Source: Escherichia coli (GTDB lineage Bacteria > Pseudomonadota > Gammaproteobacteria > Enterobacterales > Enterobacteriaceae). Taken from it: a DNA stretch of 64,000 bases. Shown here piece by piece: positions 16,981 through 25,855 of this stretch. The notes beneath the pieces were generated by a model. That model saw only the letters and a program-made list of their open reading frames with translations, ran no database searches and had not been told where the DNA came from. The position numbers were made by a program, and so were the translations under genes. Each line of letters begins with the position of its first letter. Position 1 is the first letter of the stretch. The stretch lies in the NCBI RefSeq assembly GCF_024502345.1, contig NZ_JALDNN010000001.1; one strand, 5' to 3'.

Positions 16981-17450
16981 CGGCTGTCAGCGAAGCCAAC
17001 ATTCTGAGCACATTTGAGCAACTGCATCAGAGCAAAGGCGAGGTGTTTGAGCGTGGCGTGATTAACGTGTTTAAAGGTCTGAGCTGGGATTTTAAGAGTA
17101 ACAGCCCGTGTAAGTTCGGGAAAAAGATCATCGTGATAGGGCTGGTGAAACATGACCGATGGGGATTTGGGCTTAACTGGGGCTGGCAACGTGATCGTCT
17201 GGCGGATCTTGAACGCATGCTGATACTGCTTGATGGCAAACCCGTTCCCGACAACCGCGCTGACATTACCCGTAGGCTGGGCGATCATATTCATGAGAAC
17301 AGGCACAGTAACCGTTACGAGGATGAGATGCTTGTGATTAAGTATTTTCAGAAGGGAACGGCACACATCGTATTCAAGCGACCTGAGCTGGTCGATAAGC
17401 TGAACGACATCATCGCCCGGCACTATCCGGGAGCCCTGGCTGCGATGTGA
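16981..17450 (+). pseudogene. C-terminal part of the IS3-interrupted 277-aa gene
   Basis: in-frame continuation of 15355..15718 once IS3 + 4-bp duplication is removed (junction ...EDI|PAVSEAN...). Confidence 0.65.
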
Positions 17451-17552
17451 AGAGGGCTGGAAATAAAATTCTTACCTGACCCATTACCTGACCCAATCTA
17501 CGTCCAAAGAACAAGGAGTTAGATGATTTCTCATCTAACTCCTTGTTTTATT

Positions 17553-17628
17553 TGGTGGCCCCTCCCCGGCTTGAACGGGGGACCAAGCGATTATGAGTCG
17601 CCTGCTCTAACCACTGAGCTAAGGGGCC
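17553..17628 (-). tRNA. ileX: tRNA-Ile(CAU) (ileX-type, lysidine tRNA) with island-derived T-arm
   Basis: 76 nt incl. CCA; anticodon loop CTCATAA; acceptor/D/anticodon arms match K-12 ileX as recalled; T-stem CCCCG/CGGGG differs. Confidence 0.9.
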
Positions 17629-17752
17629 ATGGTAGCGGATTATAAAGTAACTCCGTGTCGCAATCCAGCCATTACCGCGCGCCTGCTGTTTTTATAAACA
17701 ATGTATTTTCAATCCGTTATACTTTTCCTGGTGATGTTAGAAAGGAGTAAAT

Positions 17753-18259
17753 ATGGTTGAGGATATTTTGGCTCCAGGGTTACGGGTCGTGTTTTGCGGT
17801 ATCAACCCTGGGCTTTCATCCGCCGGGACTGGTTTTCCCTTTGCTCATCCGGCAAATCGCTTCTGGAAGGTGATATATCAGGCCGGGTTTACCGACCGTC
17901 AGTTGAAGCCGCAGGAGGCACAGCATCTGCTGGATTATCGTTGTGGCGTCACCAAACTGGTAGACCGTCCAACGGTGCAAGCCAATGAAATTTCAAAGCA
18001 AGAGCTACACGCAGGTGGGCGTAAGCTGATTGAAAAAATTGAAGATTATCAGCCGCAAGCGTTGGCGATTCTGGGCAAACAAGCATATGAACAGGGATTC
18101 AGCCAGCGCGGTGCACAGTGGGGGAAACAAACGCTCAGCATTGGTTCGACGCAGATTTGGGTGCTGCCAAATCCCAGCGGTTTAAGTCGCGTTTCACTGG
18201 AGAAACTGGTTGAAGCGTATCGCGAGCTGGACCAGGCGCTGGTGGTGCGTGGGCGATAA
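17753..18259 (+). CDS. mug: G/U mismatch-specific DNA glycosylase Mug
   Basis: 168 aa, matches Mug. Confidence 0.95.
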
Positions 18260-18260
18260 A

Positions 18261-18286
18261 AAACGCCACCGAAAAGGTGGCGTTTG
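18261..18286. terminator. bidirectional rho-independent terminator (mug / rpoD)
   Basis: aaaacgccacc gaaa aggtggcgttt. Confidence 0.8.
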
Positions 18287-18294
18287 TGCAAAGG

Positions 18295-18335
18295 GACAGG
18301 TGCCGGGTGCGGCGTAACGCCTGATCCGGCCTACC
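18295..18335. repeat. REP-like unit
   Basis: ggcgtaacgcctgatccggcctac. Confidence 0.6.
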
Positions 18336-18337
18336 GA

Positions 18338-20179
<1,842 letters not shown>

Positions 20180-20373
20180 AAGACGGTATCCACACTTATT
20201 TCATGAGGTTGGTGTTGGGCGATTGACCCGATGTCCTTCAGCCGTTAACGCTGAAATCCAACGGTTGTTTACCGCCAACGATAATTACGAGGGCGTACTT
20301 ATATATTTGCCGCTGCCTCTCAGTGCGGCTGTCGGGGGCTTCCCGATCGCTCTTCGGCACTTAAGCCGTTAAA

Positions 20374-22119
20374 TCACTTTTTCGCCAGCTCCTGGTTTAA
20401 TGTCCAGAGCTCCAGGCGTTCTTCGTTGCTTAAACCATGCGTGCGCTCACGAGCGATTAACTCTTCCTGGCGCAGTTCAAGCAGCGAATCAAACATATGG
20501 TTGAGTGAGTCGGTGAAGGTTTGCTCAGCAATATTCTTATCTGCTATATCGTCCCACATCGACAGTTTTTCAAGGGTGGCAGCATTATTTGTACCACGAT
20601 AGTGCTCTAAAAGTTGCCCGGTGGTCAGACCTGGCTGGGAGAGACAAGTGTTGACCAGTTCTCTGAATAAGCCAAGTCCAGGGAGCTTATTTTCATCCAG
20701 ATTCTCAAGCGGCGGGACCAACGTCGCTAATTCTGGATTTTGCACCAGCAACCCTATAAGTATACGCATGGTCGTGCGTTTTAGCTGCGGAACAGGGCGA
20801 GAAACGCCGCTCTCTGCCGCTTTTGGCATTAATCGTTCAAGCTGGCTGTCATCAAGTATGCCTAATTTGTTGCCTAATTCCTGACGAAGATATATTCGCA
20901 GCGTTTCGCCCGGCACTTGCGATATCAATGGCAGTGCCAGCGTACTCAAACGTGCGCGCCCGTCAGGGGTACTCAGATCAACTTGCGGCATCAGGCTGTT
21001 AAACAGAAATGCGGAAAGCGGCATCGCCTGCTCCATCCGCGCTTCAAACGCTTCTTTACCTTCTTTTCGTACCAGCGTGTCAGGGTCTTCGCCATCCGGC
21101 AAAAACATAAAGCGTAGCTGACGGCCGTCTGTCATGTAAGGCAGCGCCGTTTCCAGCGCTCGCCATGCGGCATCGCGGCCTGCACGGTCGCCGTCATAAC
21201 AGCAAATGACATTGTTGGTCGCGCGGAACAACAGTTGTATGTGATCGGCGGTGGTTGACGTACCTAACGACGCAACGGCGTAATTAATGCCGTATTGCGC
21301 CAGCGCCACCACGTCCATATAGCCTTCGACCACAAGCAGACGATTGGGTTCAGCGTTATCCTGCTGCGCTTCATAAAGACCGTAAAGCTGGCGGCCTTTA
21401 TGGAAAATGTCTGTTTCCGGCGAGTTCAGGTATTTGGGGGTATCGTTGCCCAGCACGCGCCCGCCAAAACCAATCACCCGACCGCGTTTATCGCGAATGG
21501 GGAACATCACCCGCTCGCGGAAACGATCGTAACTGCGTCCCTGATCGTTAGTGACCAACATCCCCGCATCAATCAATGACTGGCGATTTTCTGGATTGCC
21601 GCCAAACCGCTTCAGGACGTTGTCCCAGCCGGGGGGCGCAAAACCAATCGCAAAGCGAGCGATAACCTCGTGGCTTAATCCGCGTTTTTCCAGATACTGG
21701 CGCGCAGACGTGGCAACAGGTTGTTGTAAAGATTGTTGGTAAAACGTATTCAGACCGTCCATCAACTGATAAAGCGTTTGCCTCTGATGGCGCTCGATCT
21801 GGCTGGGGCCGCTGCCTGCTTCAAATGGCACTTCAAGATTGTGCATTGCTGCCAGCTCTTCGACCGTTTCAACGAACTCGAGCTTGTCGTAGTTCATCAG
21901 GAAGTCGATCGCGTTGCCGTGCGCGCCACATCCAAAGCAGTGGTAAAACTGTTTCTCACCGTTAACGGTGAATGACGGGGTTTTCTCGTTGTGGAATGGA
22001 CAACACGCGTGGAAATTCTTGCCCTGCTTTTTCAGCTTCACACGGGCATCGATCAGATCGACGATGTCAGTGCGTGCCAGCAGATCATTAATGAATACGC
22101 GTGGGATTCGTCCAGCCAT
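20374..22119 (-). CDS. dnaG: DNA primase DnaG
   Basis: 581 aa, zinc ribbon CCPFHNEKTPSF. Confidence 0.98.
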   Translation of the reverse strand: MAGRIPRVFINDLLARTDIVDLIDARVKLKKQGKNFHACCPFHNEKTPSFTVNGEKQFYHCFGCGAHGNAIDFLMNYDKLEFVETVEELAAMHNLEVPFEAGSGPSQIERHQRQTLYQLMDGLNTFYQQSLQQPVATSARQYLEKRGLSHEVIARFAIGFAPPGWDNVLKRFGGNPENRQSLIDAGMLVTNDQGRSYDRFRERVMFPIRDKRGRVIGFGGRVLGNDTPKYLNSPETDIFHKGRQLYGLYEAQQDNAEPNRLLVVEGYMDVVALAQYGINYAVASLGTSTTADHIQLLFRATNNVICCYDGDRAGRDAAWRALETALPYMTDGRQLRFMFLPDGEDPDTLVRKEGKEAFEARMEQAMPLSAFLFNSLMPQVDLSTPDGRARLSTLALPLISQVPGETLRIYLRQELGNKLGILDDSQLERLMPKAAESGVSRPVPQLKRTTMRILIGLLVQNPELATLVPPLENLDENKLPGLGLFRELVNTCLSQPGLTTGQLLEHYRGTNNAATLEKLSMWDDIADKNIAEQTFTDSLNHMFDSLLELRQEELIARERTHGLSNEERLELWTLNQELAKK

Positions 22120-22159
22120 AGGCCCCGATTTTTAGCAATTCATAAACGAAAATAAGCCG

Positions 22160-22195
22160 CGCATTCCTTTCGGAAGCACGGCCTTACAACTACAA
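22160..22195 (-). terminator. partial terminator between rpsU and dnaG
   Basis: imperfect hairpin gccgtgcttcc/ggaatgcgcggc followed by T-run on minus strand. Confidence 0.5.
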
Positions 22196-22229
22196 CTCGG
22201 TCTGATCGGAGAGCAACGCTCTCGGGGAA

Positions 22230-22484
<255 letters not shown>

Positions 22485-22682
22485 TCAACGCCAGCTTATT
22501 TCAAAATGGTGCGGAATTTTACTGCAATTGCTGCTGCTTTGTAAAGCACCGCGGCCTTTTTTGAAAGGGACTTTTATAAGGGTGAGGAGTATACACGAGG
22601 CTTTCTCCAGGGGCGAACAAAGTTTTACATCAACCCGCATTGGTCCTACACTGCGCGGTAATAAAGCGAGGTAAAACAAGTC

Positions 22683-23696
22683 ATGCGTGTACTGGGTATT
22701 GAAACTTCCTGCGATGAAACCGGCATCGCCATTTACGACGATGAAAAAGGTTTGTTAGCCAACCAATTGTATAGTCAGGTGAAATTGCACGCTGACTACG
22801 GCGGCGTCGTGCCTGAACTGGCCTCCCGCGATCACGTGCGCAAAACCGTACCGTTGATCCAGGCGGCGCTAAAGGAGTCTGGTTTAACGGCAAAAGACAT
22901 TGATGCTGTGGCCTATACCGCAGGCCCTGGATTAGTCGGCGCACTGCTGGTTGGCGCAACCGTGGGGCGTTCTCTGGCGTTTGCCTGGAACGTTCCGGCA
23001 ATCCCGGTACACCATATGGAAGGGCATCTGTTAGCGCCGATGCTGGAAGATAACCCGCCGGAATTTCCGTTTGTCGCGCTGCTGGTGTCCGGCGGTCATA
23101 CGCAGTTAATCAGCGTGACTGGCATTGGTCAGTACGAGCTGCTCGGCGAGTCTATTGATGATGCCGCCGGTGAAGCGTTTGATAAAACCGCGAAGCTGCT
23201 GGGGCTGGATTATCCTGGCGGACCGTTACTGTCGAAAATGGCGGCTCAGGGTACTGCCGGGCGCTTTGTTTTCCCGCGTCCGATGACCGACCGTCCGGGG
23301 CTGGATTTCAGCTTTTCTGGTCTGAAAACCTTTGCGGCGAACACGATTCGTGACAACGGCACCGACGACCAGACGCGTGCTGATATCGCCCGCGCCTTTG
23401 AAGATGCGGTGGTCGATACGTTGATGATTAAGTGTAAGCGAGCGTTGGATCAGACGGGCTTTAAGCGACTGGTCATGGCGGGCGGCGTGAGTGCTAACCG
23501 CACGTTACGGGCGAAGCTGGCTGAAATGATGAAAAAACGCCGCGGCGAAGTGTTCTACGCGCGTCCGGAGTTTTGTACTGATAACGGCGCGATGATCGCC
23601 TATGCCGGAATGGTGCGGTTTAAAGCAGGCGCGACGGCGGATCTCGGCGTTAGCGTGCGTCCGCGCTGGCCGCTGGCGGAGTTACCGGCTGCGTAA
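22683..23696 (+). CDS. tsaD: tRNA t6A37 threonylcarbamoyltransferase TsaD (YgjD)
   Basis: 337 aa. Confidence 0.97.
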
Positions 23697-23738
23697 AACT
23701 ATTGGGTGCCGGAGAGCAATTTCCGGCACCGTCCTCAC

Positions 23739-25202
23739 TTAAAGCAACACCACGGGCATCCACAGTAAGCCGGTAATCACCAGCAACACGAGGAATATCA
23801 GCCCAAAAATCGCCCCCAGTCGCCAGTAATCCGCCGTTGGCAGATAACCACTACCGTAGTAAATCGGACTGGGTCCGGTGGCGTATGGTGTAAGAATGCT
23901 CCCCAGACCAATTGCCGCACCAACCATCAGGCAGAACACCGGCAGCGGGATTTCCGGCATCGCCAGCGCAGCGGCAATCATCATCGGTGCGAGAGCGGAG
24001 GTATACGCCGTGGCGCTGGCAAAAAAGTAGCGCAGCAGATAAAACACCACAATCAACGCCACCATCACCATCGTCGGCGAATAACCGCTTAAGCTGCCTG
24101 CTAACAGTTTGCCAAACCAGCTAATAAAACCGGTGTTGTTGAGTCCGGTAGCGAGGGTGATAAGCGAGGCCAGCCAGAAGAAAACGTTCCACGCGGCTTT
24201 ATTACTGACAATGTCGTCCCAACTGATAATGCGCAGAAGCAGCATCAGCGCCACCACGCTGTAACCGACCATCGCGGCATCGATATAATCACCGCCGAAA
24301 ATCCACAGCACCAGCGCGCCTACCATCAGCCCCAGCATCCGTTTTTCACGCGAACAGAGCGGGCCCATTGCCTGCAGTTCCTTCTCTGCCCAGCGCGGCA
24401 CCTGATCGCCTGACTTCAGTACAGGCGGGTACAGCACGTAAGCCAGCCAGGGAACCAGCAGGACCAGTAAAATACTGAGCGGCAACATCCCAAGGAACCA
24501 GTCGCCCCAACTCAGCGTGGTGTGAGATGCGCTTTTCATCAGTCCAATTAACAGCAAGTTAGGAGCCATCGCCGTCAGGAAAATGGCGCTGGTCACGCAG
24601 TCGGCAACAATCCCCATCCACATGATGTACGAGCCAATGCTGCGTGAACTGCTGTCGTTTGGTTGTGATTGATAGAGCGGTGGCAGGTTACGGATGATGG
24701 GATAGATAATCCCCGCACCACGCGCCGAGTTGGACGGTGTTACAGGTGCCAGGATCAGCTCGGAGAACATCACCGCATAGCCGAGAAACAGCGTGCGATG
24801 TCCCATCTTTTTCACCAGAATCAGCGCGATACGTCGCCCCAGCCCGGTTTTTTCATAGCCTGTGCCAAACATAAAGGCGGCGAAAATCAGCCAGATAACC
24901 GAATTAGAAAAACCGGAAACCGCCCACGAGAGGGATTTTGCAGTGAATTTAAAGCCTGGCTGGGCGAGCTGTTCGGGGCTGAACAGCAGCCAGGGAGAGA
25001 GTATGGCGATGATGGAGATACCCACCATCGCCACCACGGCACCCGGCACGGGTTCGAGGATCAGTCCAACGATTACGCCAGTAAAAACGGCAAAGTAGAG
25101 CCAGGTATGACTCTCCAGCCCTGCGGGAACCGGAATTAGAGCAATAATGGCGATGACCGCCAGCGGCGCAAGGTATCGCCACCATTCAGTGGAAGGTTTC
25201 AT
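23739..25202 (-). CDS. ttdT: L-tartrate/succinate antiporter TtdT
   Basis: 487 aa polytopic membrane protein. Confidence 0.93.
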   Translation of the reverse strand: MKPSTEWWRYLAPLAVIAIIALIPVPAGLESHTWLYFAVFTGVIVGLILEPVPGAVVAMVGISIIAILSPWLLFSPEQLAQPGFKFTAKSLSWAVSGFSNSVIWLIFAAFMFGTGYEKTGLGRRIALILVKKMGHRTLFLGYAVMFSELILAPVTPSNSARGAGIIYPIIRNLPPLYQSQPNDSSSRSIGSYIMWMGIVADCVTSAIFLTAMAPNLLLIGLMKSASHTTLSWGDWFLGMLPLSILLVLLVPWLAYVLYPPVLKSGDQVPRWAEKELQAMGPLCSREKRMLGLMVGALVLWIFGGDYIDAAMVGYSVVALMLLLRIISWDDIVSNKAAWNVFFWLASLITLATGLNNTGFISWFGKLLAGSLSGYSPTMVMVALIVVFYLLRYFFASATAYTSALAPMMIAAALAMPEIPLPVFCLMVGAAIGLGSILTPYATGPSPIYYGSGYLPTADYWRLGAIFGLIFLVLLVITGLLWMPVVLL

Positions 25203-25249
25203 CGTGTTATGCCTGCGAAAAAGGAGAGGTGCGAGCCTCTCCTTGAGGG

Positions 25250-25855
25250 TTATTTGATGTAATGGACGTGCTCGCAGATCTCTTCCACGATGGGATCGCG
25301 GCGTTCGGCGAACAGCTTTTTGTTTTCGGCTATCAGGTTGTTGCCGTGGGTATCAATAGAGACAATCAGCGGGCCGAACTCTTTGACCCGGCAGACCCAC
25401 AGTGACTCCGGCATCCCGAGTTCTGTCCAGTGCACTTCTTCAATCTCTTCTACTTGGGTTGCCGCCAGCACCGCGCAGCCTGCCGGGAAAATCACATGTA
25501 GCGCCTTGAATTTCTGGCAGCCTTCTTCGGTCAGCGGCCCCATTCCGCCTTTGCCGACCACCAGTTTCACGCCGGTCTGCTCGATAAATTCACGTTCAAA
25601 ACTTTCCATACGCATACTGGTTGTCGGACCGACGGAGACCATCTCCCATTTGTCGCCGTTTTTGCGCACGATGGGGCCAGCGTGGAAAATCGCTTTGCCG
25701 TTGAGATCGTAAGGGATCGGACGTTTCAGTTCGATCAAGCGGCGGTGACAAACGTCGCGGCAGGTCACCAGCGTACCGGTCAGGTAGATCACATCGCCGA
25801 CGCGAATATCTTGCAGATCTTCAGCTTTGATCGGGGTTGTCAGGATCTTTTTCAT
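25250..25855 (-). CDS. ttdB: L(+)-tartrate dehydratase beta subunit
   Basis: 201 aa. Confidence 0.95.

Follow-up and report, generated by a model that had tools for sequence, protein, structure and literature searches.

An island remnant lies between nfeF and mug at ileX

The window, by which we mean the whole 64-kb stretch of Escherichia coli DNA that was analysed (64,000 nucleotides of contig NZ_JALDNN010000001.1, assembly GCF_024502345.1), contains between the chromosomal genes nfeF and mug an intact copy of ileX, a displaced 3′ fragment of the same gene and, between these two repeats, an insert of ~6.9 kb made up of the N-terminal half of an integrase gene, filler, an IS5 element, and an IS3 element lying within a DUF4942 gene. 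We annotated the locus as follows, with the basis of each assignment in parentheses.

9745–10509, + strand: nfeF (yqjH), the chromosomal flank on the fragment side (ORF; K-12 and 730V1 annotation)
10520–10552, − strand: native ileX terminator hairpin and T-run, stranded behind the fragment (identical to K-12 downstream of ileX)
10562–10608, − strand: displaced original 3′ part of ileX, positions 30–76, with T-arm GCTGG TTCAAGT CCAGC and a core copy at 10590–10608 (identical to the K-12 ileX 3′ part)
10609–10805: P arm beside the fragment, and integrase upstream region, with TTACCTGACCC at 10735–10745 and 10747–10757 (+) and at 10770–10780 (−) (identical arm in 730V1 and five IMG/VR contigs)
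10806–11474, + strand: truncated tyrosine integrase gene, with arm-binding and central domains and without the catalytic domain (PF13356 and PF22022 the sole Pfam domains; similarity to the complete gene stops at 11462)
11463–15233: internal filler that is not in the 730V1 island, comprising an NDUS4-like fragment, orf238, a Rep3_C fragment, IS5, a lipoprotein gene and orf135 (Pfam, ORFs, alignment)
13092–14286: IS5, with target duplication CTAA (within the filler)
14411–14863: YfjS/YafY lipoprotein gene (within the filler)
15340–17450, + strand: DUF4942 gene, in halves at 15340–15718 and 16977–17450 split by IS3 (Pfam PF13708 on both halves; breakpoints from the 730V1 alignment)
15719–16976, − strand: IS3, with its transposase genes on the − strand (ORFs, 730V1 alignment)
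17451–17552: P′ arm beside the intact tRNA gene, with two tandem TTACCTGACCC at 17472–17494 and a 17-bp hairpin at 17510–17547 (repeats; conserved in 730V1)
17553–17628, − strand: intact tRNA-Ile(CAU) gene ileX, interpreted as a chimera of chromosomal positions 1–29, a shared core at 30–48 and island-derived positions 49–76 (ARAGORN, Rfam, pair counting, K-12 alignment)
17753–18259, + strand: mug, the chromosomal flank on the side of the intact tRNA gene (ORF; K-12 and 730V1 annotation)

The left (P) arm begins with ATAAAATCGG. The integrase gene that follows it retains the front half of its homologue, 216 of 219 residues being identical to the first 219 of the 438 amino acids of the 730V1 integrase. 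The arm-binding domain PF13356 was recognized with an E value of 2.7e-13, and the catalytic domain PF00589, which is present in the 99% identical 730V1 homologue, is absent from the integrase in the window. Because the gene is truncated, the element is not expected to excise itself.

The filler has several features of its own. A perfect, very AT-rich 26-nt inverted repeat with a 12-nt loop (11557–11620) stands ~95 bp past the end of the integrase homology; the Rfam miRNA matches at this position were weak, and we dismissed them as chance matches. On the minus strand at 11680–11830, the C-terminal part of a 134-amino-acid ORF matched Pfam NDUS4 (NADH dehydrogenase Fe-S protein 4; E 8e-11), in a stretch that is locally GC-rich, had no match in complete E. 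coli genomes and makes an odd passenger for an E. coli island. A 238-amino-acid ORF (11894–12610), limited among complete E. coli genomes to 12, in which it is chromosomal or plasmid-borne, adjoins the C-terminal fragment of a Rep3 initiator (PF21205; 12663–13106, minus strand), which itself abuts the IS5 copy.

The two copies of ileX differ in their T-arms

ARAGORN called a single tRNA gene in the 64 kb, at 17553–17628 on the minus strand with anticodon CAT, and the Rfam tRNA model scored the same interval at 64.9 bits against a gathering score of 29, so the stretch that the preliminary description had taken for a working tRNA gene is indeed predicted as a tRNA gene. Separated by structural element, its minus-strand sequence is GGCCCCT TA GCTC AGTGGTTA GAGC A GGCGA CTCATAA TCGCT TGGTC CCCCG TTCAAGC CGGGG AGGGGCC ACCA. 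The fragment (10562–10608, minus strand) is 47 nt long, corresponds to tRNA positions 30–76 and reads GA CTCATAA TCGCT TGGTC GCTGG TTCAAGT CCAGC AGGGGCC ACCA; ARAGORN did not call it as a tRNA. The T-arms and coordinates first reported for the two copies were correct in each case.

Both copies lie on the minus strand in direct orientation, 6,991 bp apart, and bracket the element. They form a direct repeat (47/57 nt) with a perfect core of 19 nt, GACTCATAATCGCTTGGTC, which spans tRNA positions 30–48 and is found at 10590–10608 and 17581–17599. The seven positions at which the copies differ all fall 3′ of this core, among the 28 bases of positions 49–76. Six of the seven make up the T-stem pairs 49–65, 51–63 and 52–62, each changed on both sides, and the seventh is T-loop position 60, a T in the fragment and a C in the intact gene. 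The 3′ strand of the acceptor stem, A73 and the CCA end of the intact gene are the same as in the native one. We dropped plain minimum-free-energy folding as evidence because it returned no cloverleaf for any allele, the native one included, and relied instead on ARAGORN, the Rfam model and explicit pair counting. The intact gene divides into three parts.

17600–17628, − strand: chromosomal 5′ part, positions 1–29, continuous with the native mug-ileX intergenic region (identical to K-12, including 40+ nt upstream)
17581–17599: core copy at the intact-gene junction, GACTCATAATCGCTTGGTC, positions 30–48, which bounds the crossover (direct repeat, allele table)
17553–17580, − strand: 3′ part attributed to the island, positions 49–76, with T-arm CCCCG TTCAAGC CGGGG at 17564–17580 (alignment; contiguous with the island arm at 17451–17552)

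The fragment carries the chromosomal T-arm

The ileX gene of K-12 MG1655 (NC_000913.3, 3215598–3215673) has the T-arm GCTGG TTCAAGT CCAGC, the same as the fragment and not CCCCG/CGGGG; the preliminary description had given this arm as the K-12 one, and rightly. In that genome mug, ileX and nfeF are adjacent and the site is unoccupied, as is the ileX site of BS-01. A five-way alignment showed that the K-12 site follows the mug side of the window base for base through tRNA position 48, and that, beginning at position 30, it follows the fragment on the nfeF side past the native terminator and on toward nfeF. The unoccupied K-12 mug-ileX-nfeF site is, in other words, the left and right junctions of the window joined. 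Because the fragment continues into the terminator and nfeF as in K-12, its GCTGG arm is the original chromosomal one; the CCCCG arm of the intact gene is contiguous with inserted DNA. The K-12 alignment of both junctions thus supports the initial proposal that the intact gene carries an island-derived T-arm and the fragment the chromosomal one. A comparison of ileX alleles with and without an island agrees with it: the empty K-12 site has GCTGG, and at the occupied site of 730V1 the fragment has GCTGG and the intact gene a foreign arm. The chromosomal T-arm may also persist beyond the fragment, in a second gene (ileY) outside the 64-kb window.

The reverse assignment, in which CCCCG/CGGGG would be ancestral in this lineage and the GCTGG fragment island-borne, has in its favour no more than that a direct repeat is formally symmetrical. 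Several observations speak against it: the continuity of the GCTGG fragment with the native terminator and nfeF, that of the CCCCG arm with island DNA, the absence of the 76-nt CCCCG allele from complete E. coli genomes (0 of 5,426; best full-length match 92.1%), and a flanking chromosome that is ordinary E. coli (best identity among complete genomes 99.2% over 10 kb). The K-12 empty-site alignment refutes CCCCG as the lineage's own allele, and we give the reverse assignment practically no chance of being correct.

A crossover upstream of the T-arm would explain the chimera

The crossover is bounded to positions 30–48, which comprise the last two 5′ anticodon-stem pairs, the anticodon loop, the 3′ strand of the anticodon stem and the variable loop, and this bears out its earlier placement in the anticodon/variable region. 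The identity block starts at G30, two pairs before the anticodon loop, and positions 49–76 are tRNA-like, with the seven differences, as far as the CCA end. A crossover in the T-loop is excluded because a native 5′ T-stem strand facing an island 3′ strand would mispair three times, as G.G, U.G and G.G. The tRNA now in use had also been described as a chimera with compensatory T-stem changes. The chimera stands; the changes, however, did not evolve in place but were imported as a block, since with the whole T-arm coming from one source all pairs stay Watson-Crick.

Five exact copies of TTACCTGACCC occur in the window, only at 10735–10780 and 17472–17494, which is ~60–170 bp from the tRNA-derived repeats; by chance, ~0.55 matches would be expected in the whole window with one mismatch allowed. 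These repeats are also kept in the 730V1 arms. We regard them as probable arm-type sites of the integrase, one group on each side of the core, and the layout, as far as sequence can tell, is that of an attP split by integration, with putative arm-type sites on both arms. Where TTACCTGACCC stands in the window, E. coli F11, Mangrovibacter and one IMG/VR ileX element have GGATACC-like repeats, pointing to a second integrase specificity for this tRNA gene.

The hairpin next to the intact gene (17510–17552) is homologous to the native ileX terminator (10520–10561), with which it has the GAGAAATC loop and flanks in common, and takes the place of that terminator. By this homology, the attachment site seems to carry the 3′ part of the tRNA together with a terminator copied from some past chromosome. 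The hairpin is without a strong T-run and received no terminator call in a consensus scan.

Together with the architecture of the locus, we observed an empty site in K-12, a distinctive allele distribution (described below) and a truncated integrase, and we consider it very likely that an island with a heterobivalent tyrosine integrase integrated into ileX and rebuilt the gene as a chimera with the island's T-arm. The event would have been a site-specific, Campbell-type recombination into ileX with the crossover in or next to the anticodon loop, the island attachment site carrying its own copy of positions 30–76 and a terminator-like hairpin. Integration would have joined the chromosomal 5′ part (positions 1–29/48) to the island 3′ part (positions 49–76). 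Because an attP that carries the 3′ portion of a tRNA gene regenerates the gene on integration, a complete tRNA-Ile(CAU) gene would have formed behind the native promoter region, and the original 3′ part and terminator would have been displaced by 6.9 kb to their place beside nfeF. The island T-arm, presumably the native allele of other Enterobacterales genera, would have arrived as a complete self-complementary unit that left the cloverleaf and the acceptor, anticodon and discriminator positions unchanged, so that the tRNA should work. Later decay, in which the integrase was truncated, the interior lost or replaced and IS5 and IS3 inserted, would have removed the element's own means of excision and, with that loss, fixed the chimeric allele. 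As to the exact crossover bases, the donor lineage, and the expression and function of the chimera, we infer rather than observe.

A search for the free or excised form, with the CCCCG arm, the core and the P arm joined, gave no matches in metagenome contigs and none in phage records. The junction of the P′ arm with CCCCG had a sole match in metagenomes, OGWT01000028.1, 100% identical to the window. This public 85-kb contig, 100% identical to window positions 16922–25608 and ending inside the IS3 copy, was probably assembled from short reads of this strain or one very close to it. We rejected the IMG/VR matches as free elements, as they are junctions in other hosts, and rejected MK422453.1 as a phage-borne tRNA piece or attP, as it holds host flank with an intact ileX-locus gene.

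Foreign T-arms occur at occupied ileX sites in E. coli and are native elsewhere

Because a whole-island megablast was swamped by IS3 and IS5 copies, we searched the two ends of the island separately. The DUF4942-tRNA-mug end matched 42 complete E. coli genomes over at least 80% of the query; the nfeF/integrase end matched 449, and most of the matches listed span both nfeF and the integrase. We read the full layout (nfeF, fragment, integrase ... DUF4942, tRNA, mug) in 730V1, whose 56-kb island has CbtA, DUF5983, DUF957 and DUF4942 genes beside the tRNA, retains GCTGG in the fragment and has GTTGG TTCAAAC CCAAC in the intact gene. The GTTGG allele is also present in the O145, O121 and F1022 islands at ileX (the O145 and O121 strains having the DUF4942-tRNA-mug arrangement with a foreign T-arm) and in F11 and E2855, where ileX is occupied by a different element with phage-type genes. 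It was found exactly in 346 records of complete E. coli genomes, at island- or prophage-occupied ileX, and the native allele was the best match in about 4,950–5,025 complete genomes. L73, ECONIH5 and NCTC9064 have an island at ileX and yet a native-type T-arm in the intact gene; either the piece brought by these islands is itself of E. coli type, or homogenisation has made the two repeats alike. When six distinct alleles were aligned, all 21 cloverleaf pairs were standard in each, with five pairs changed on both sides.

Two further observations concern E. coli tRNA-Ile(CAU) sequences. The island-rebuilt ileX of F1022 has an additional C72T change that puts a G1.U72 wobble atop the acceptor stem. 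Complete E. coli assemblies also hold 88 plasmid-borne tRNA-Ile(CAU)-like genes, an example of which (NZ_CP183151.1, 98014–98089) shares 85.5% identity with the chromosomal alleles.

When one genome per species was scanned for exact matches, the CCCCG arm plus core turned up at eight sites, and at seven of these the whole 76-nt tRNA equals the chimera in the window: three Mangrovibacter species, Leminorella grimontii, Prodigiosinella confusarubida, Entomohabitans teleogrylli and an Enterobacteriaceae MAG. The locus proved orthologous wherever its flanks were open to checking, the gene adjoining mug (Entomohabitans and Prodigiosinella) or lying near rpoD (M. plantisponsor). In M. phragmitis, Prodigiosinella and the MAG the site is unoccupied and a common conserved, non-island terminator follows the gene, so CCCCG is the native allele in those lineages. 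The GTTGG allele stands at an unoccupied mug-ileX site, before the same type of conserved terminator, in one K. pneumoniae record (MK422453.1). Each foreign T-arm in E. coli (CCCCG, GTTGG) is therefore an ileX-locus allele seen in another genus and identical over the full 76 nt, a match that would fit the idea that islands and prophages take tRNA pieces along from previous hosts.

Two of these records have peculiarities of their own. MK422453.1, deposited as a Klebsiella phage genome, includes ~6 kb of host chromosome (tsaD, rpsU, dnaG, rpoD, mug and the intact tRNA), and its tRNA (6115–6190 of the examined segment) is annotated as tRNA-Met and is ileX with the GTTGG T-arm. On Entomohabitans teleogrylli scaffold3, near-identical host-type sequence of 70 nt lies downstream of both the intact ileX and a displaced fragment; by this sequence, the attachment site of that element seems to include a far longer stretch copied from the host locus.

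The two ends of the island in the window have diverged unequally. The integrase/P-arm end is 97.7% identical to 730V1, whereas the DUF4942/tRNA end, including P′, is only ~85% identical to its best match by megablast among complete E. coli genomes, and its T-arm differs from that of 730V1 at 9 positions. The two ends may for this reason not derive from one original island. The T-arm could instead have come from a related ileX island other than the integrase's own, through a tandem array and deletion or through recombination between relatives, with the CCCCG end supplied by a relative that circulated in CCCCG-type hosts. Such an origin would suit the unrelated filler that makes up the interior (11463–15233), the occurrence of near-identical integrases with three different T-arms, and the ileX elements of two Mangrovibacter species, in which the first 13 bases directly after the CCCCG-type tRNA (AAATAAAACAAGG) match the island arm in the window. 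However, just two core copies are present in the window, so that no tandem junction remains, and the arm-type repeats are identical at both ends, as expected for one integrase system. We hold this composite origin to be a possibility worth keeping in mind but not the probable one; it would refine only where the T-arm came from and leave the mechanism of the chimera unchanged.

The chimeric gene is predicted to function

Judging from its sequence, the chimeric ileX should be functional. Positions 1–48 and 66–76 equal those of K-12 ileX and thereby preserve the CAU anticodon, the anticodon arm, the acceptor stem, A73 and CCA; C4-G69, C5-G68, A73 and the anticodon arm are what we take to be the TilS/IleRS determinants of tRNA-Ile2. 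Within the exchanged part, G53-C61 and T54-T55-C56 are retained, and the region upstream of the gene is identical to K-12.

If the chimera were instead a non-functional or poorly functional relic, AUA would have to be decoded via a second, ileY-like tRNA-Ile(CAU) gene outside the window. K-12 and many other E. coli genomes do have two copies, the window holds one tRNA in the 64 kb of genome that it covers, and by the consensus scan the replacement hairpin is a weak terminator. But the same 76-nt sequence is the ileX-locus gene of several genera, it stands behind an unaltered upstream region with all pairs and the T-loop bases named above intact, and the median number of tRNA-Ile(CAU) genes per E. 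coli genome is one. Moreover, there are strains whose only tRNA-Ile(CAU) gene has another foreign T-arm: on the chromosome of E2855 the GTTGG allele has no second copy beside it, and CX15 would be another strain with a foreign T-arm as sole copy, on the basis of a single match in the record (88.2% identity). We would be surprised if the gene were a relic, and expect the chimera to serve as a working tRNA.

Implications

The mechanism itself is the textbook outcome of tRNA-targeted integration and is not new. What is new is the instance only: a T-arm allele unseen in complete E. coli genomes and native to other Enterobacterales genera. The locus is a clear case of a tRNA-targeting element overwriting part of the gene that it targets, with a precise island boundary and a crossover bounded to 19 bases, and it brings to at least two the foreign ileX T-arm alleles in E. 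coli, at island- or prophage-occupied sites. Modest practical uses follow: the T-arm can be used as a marker of a former island end, and the displaced fragment can delimit this decayed island in annotation pipelines; differences between ileX alleles are not to be taken for evolution by point mutation.

A more far-reaching idea is that the tRNA pieces in attachment sites are heritable barcodes of earlier hosts, by which T-stem alleles of a tRNA that is essential and single-copy pass from one genus to another (CCCCG of the Mangrovibacter/Leminorella type, GTTGG of the Klebsiella type). We put it forward as speculation that will probably prove wrong. Work from the Uhlenbeck laboratory reportedly places T-stem pairs 49-65, 50-64 and 51-63 in contact with EF-Tu, so a swap of the T-arm could alter the affinity for EF-Tu, the decoding of AUA or the response to toxins that target tRNAs; were the barcode idea true, such retuning in the recipient could be measurable.

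Comparison with known systems

We found nothing relevant in the literature on chimeric or hybrid tRNAs at islands. In the islands catalogued by Islander, integration restores the tRNA gene by means of a fragment of it in attP (Hudson, Lau and Williams 2015, PMC4383910, citing Reiter et al. 1989 and Williams 2002). The locus described here resembles them in having an intact tRNA gene at one end of the element and a displaced 3′ fragment at the other; of a tyrosine integrase gene, the N-terminal half is present inside the element. It differs in that the restoring fragment is visibly non-identical (7 of 28 bases), which makes the chimera recognisable, and in that the island has decayed to 6.9 kb and its integrase is cut short. 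Integration at an anticodon-loop sublocation has been described (Williams 2002, as cited in a passage of bioRxiv 10.1101/2020.11.02.365908); likewise, the block in the window starts at position 30 and tRNA-like sequence extends to the CCA end. As in heterobivalent integrase systems, the window has an N-terminal PF13356 domain, and repeated putative arm-type sites flank the core on either side.

ileX is a known integration site in E. coli, according to the passages that mention it in reports of an element in STEC O145:H28 (PMC7067040) and of LAA modules beside ileX (PMC5539235, PMC7545054), and those passages do not discuss a change of the tRNA sequence. The elements they describe share the chromosomal site with the island in the window; they are tens of kb long and have the GTTGG allele, in contrast to the CCCCG allele here. 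The native ileX genes of Mangrovibacter, Leminorella, Prodigiosinella and Entomohabitans (CCCCG) and of K. pneumoniae (GTTGG) equal the E. coli chimeras over the full 76 nt. What sets them apart is the sequence that follows: the native alleles (M. phragmitis, Prodigiosinella, the MAG and MK422453.1) stand before a conserved non-island terminator, whereas the E. coli chimeras stand before an island arm.
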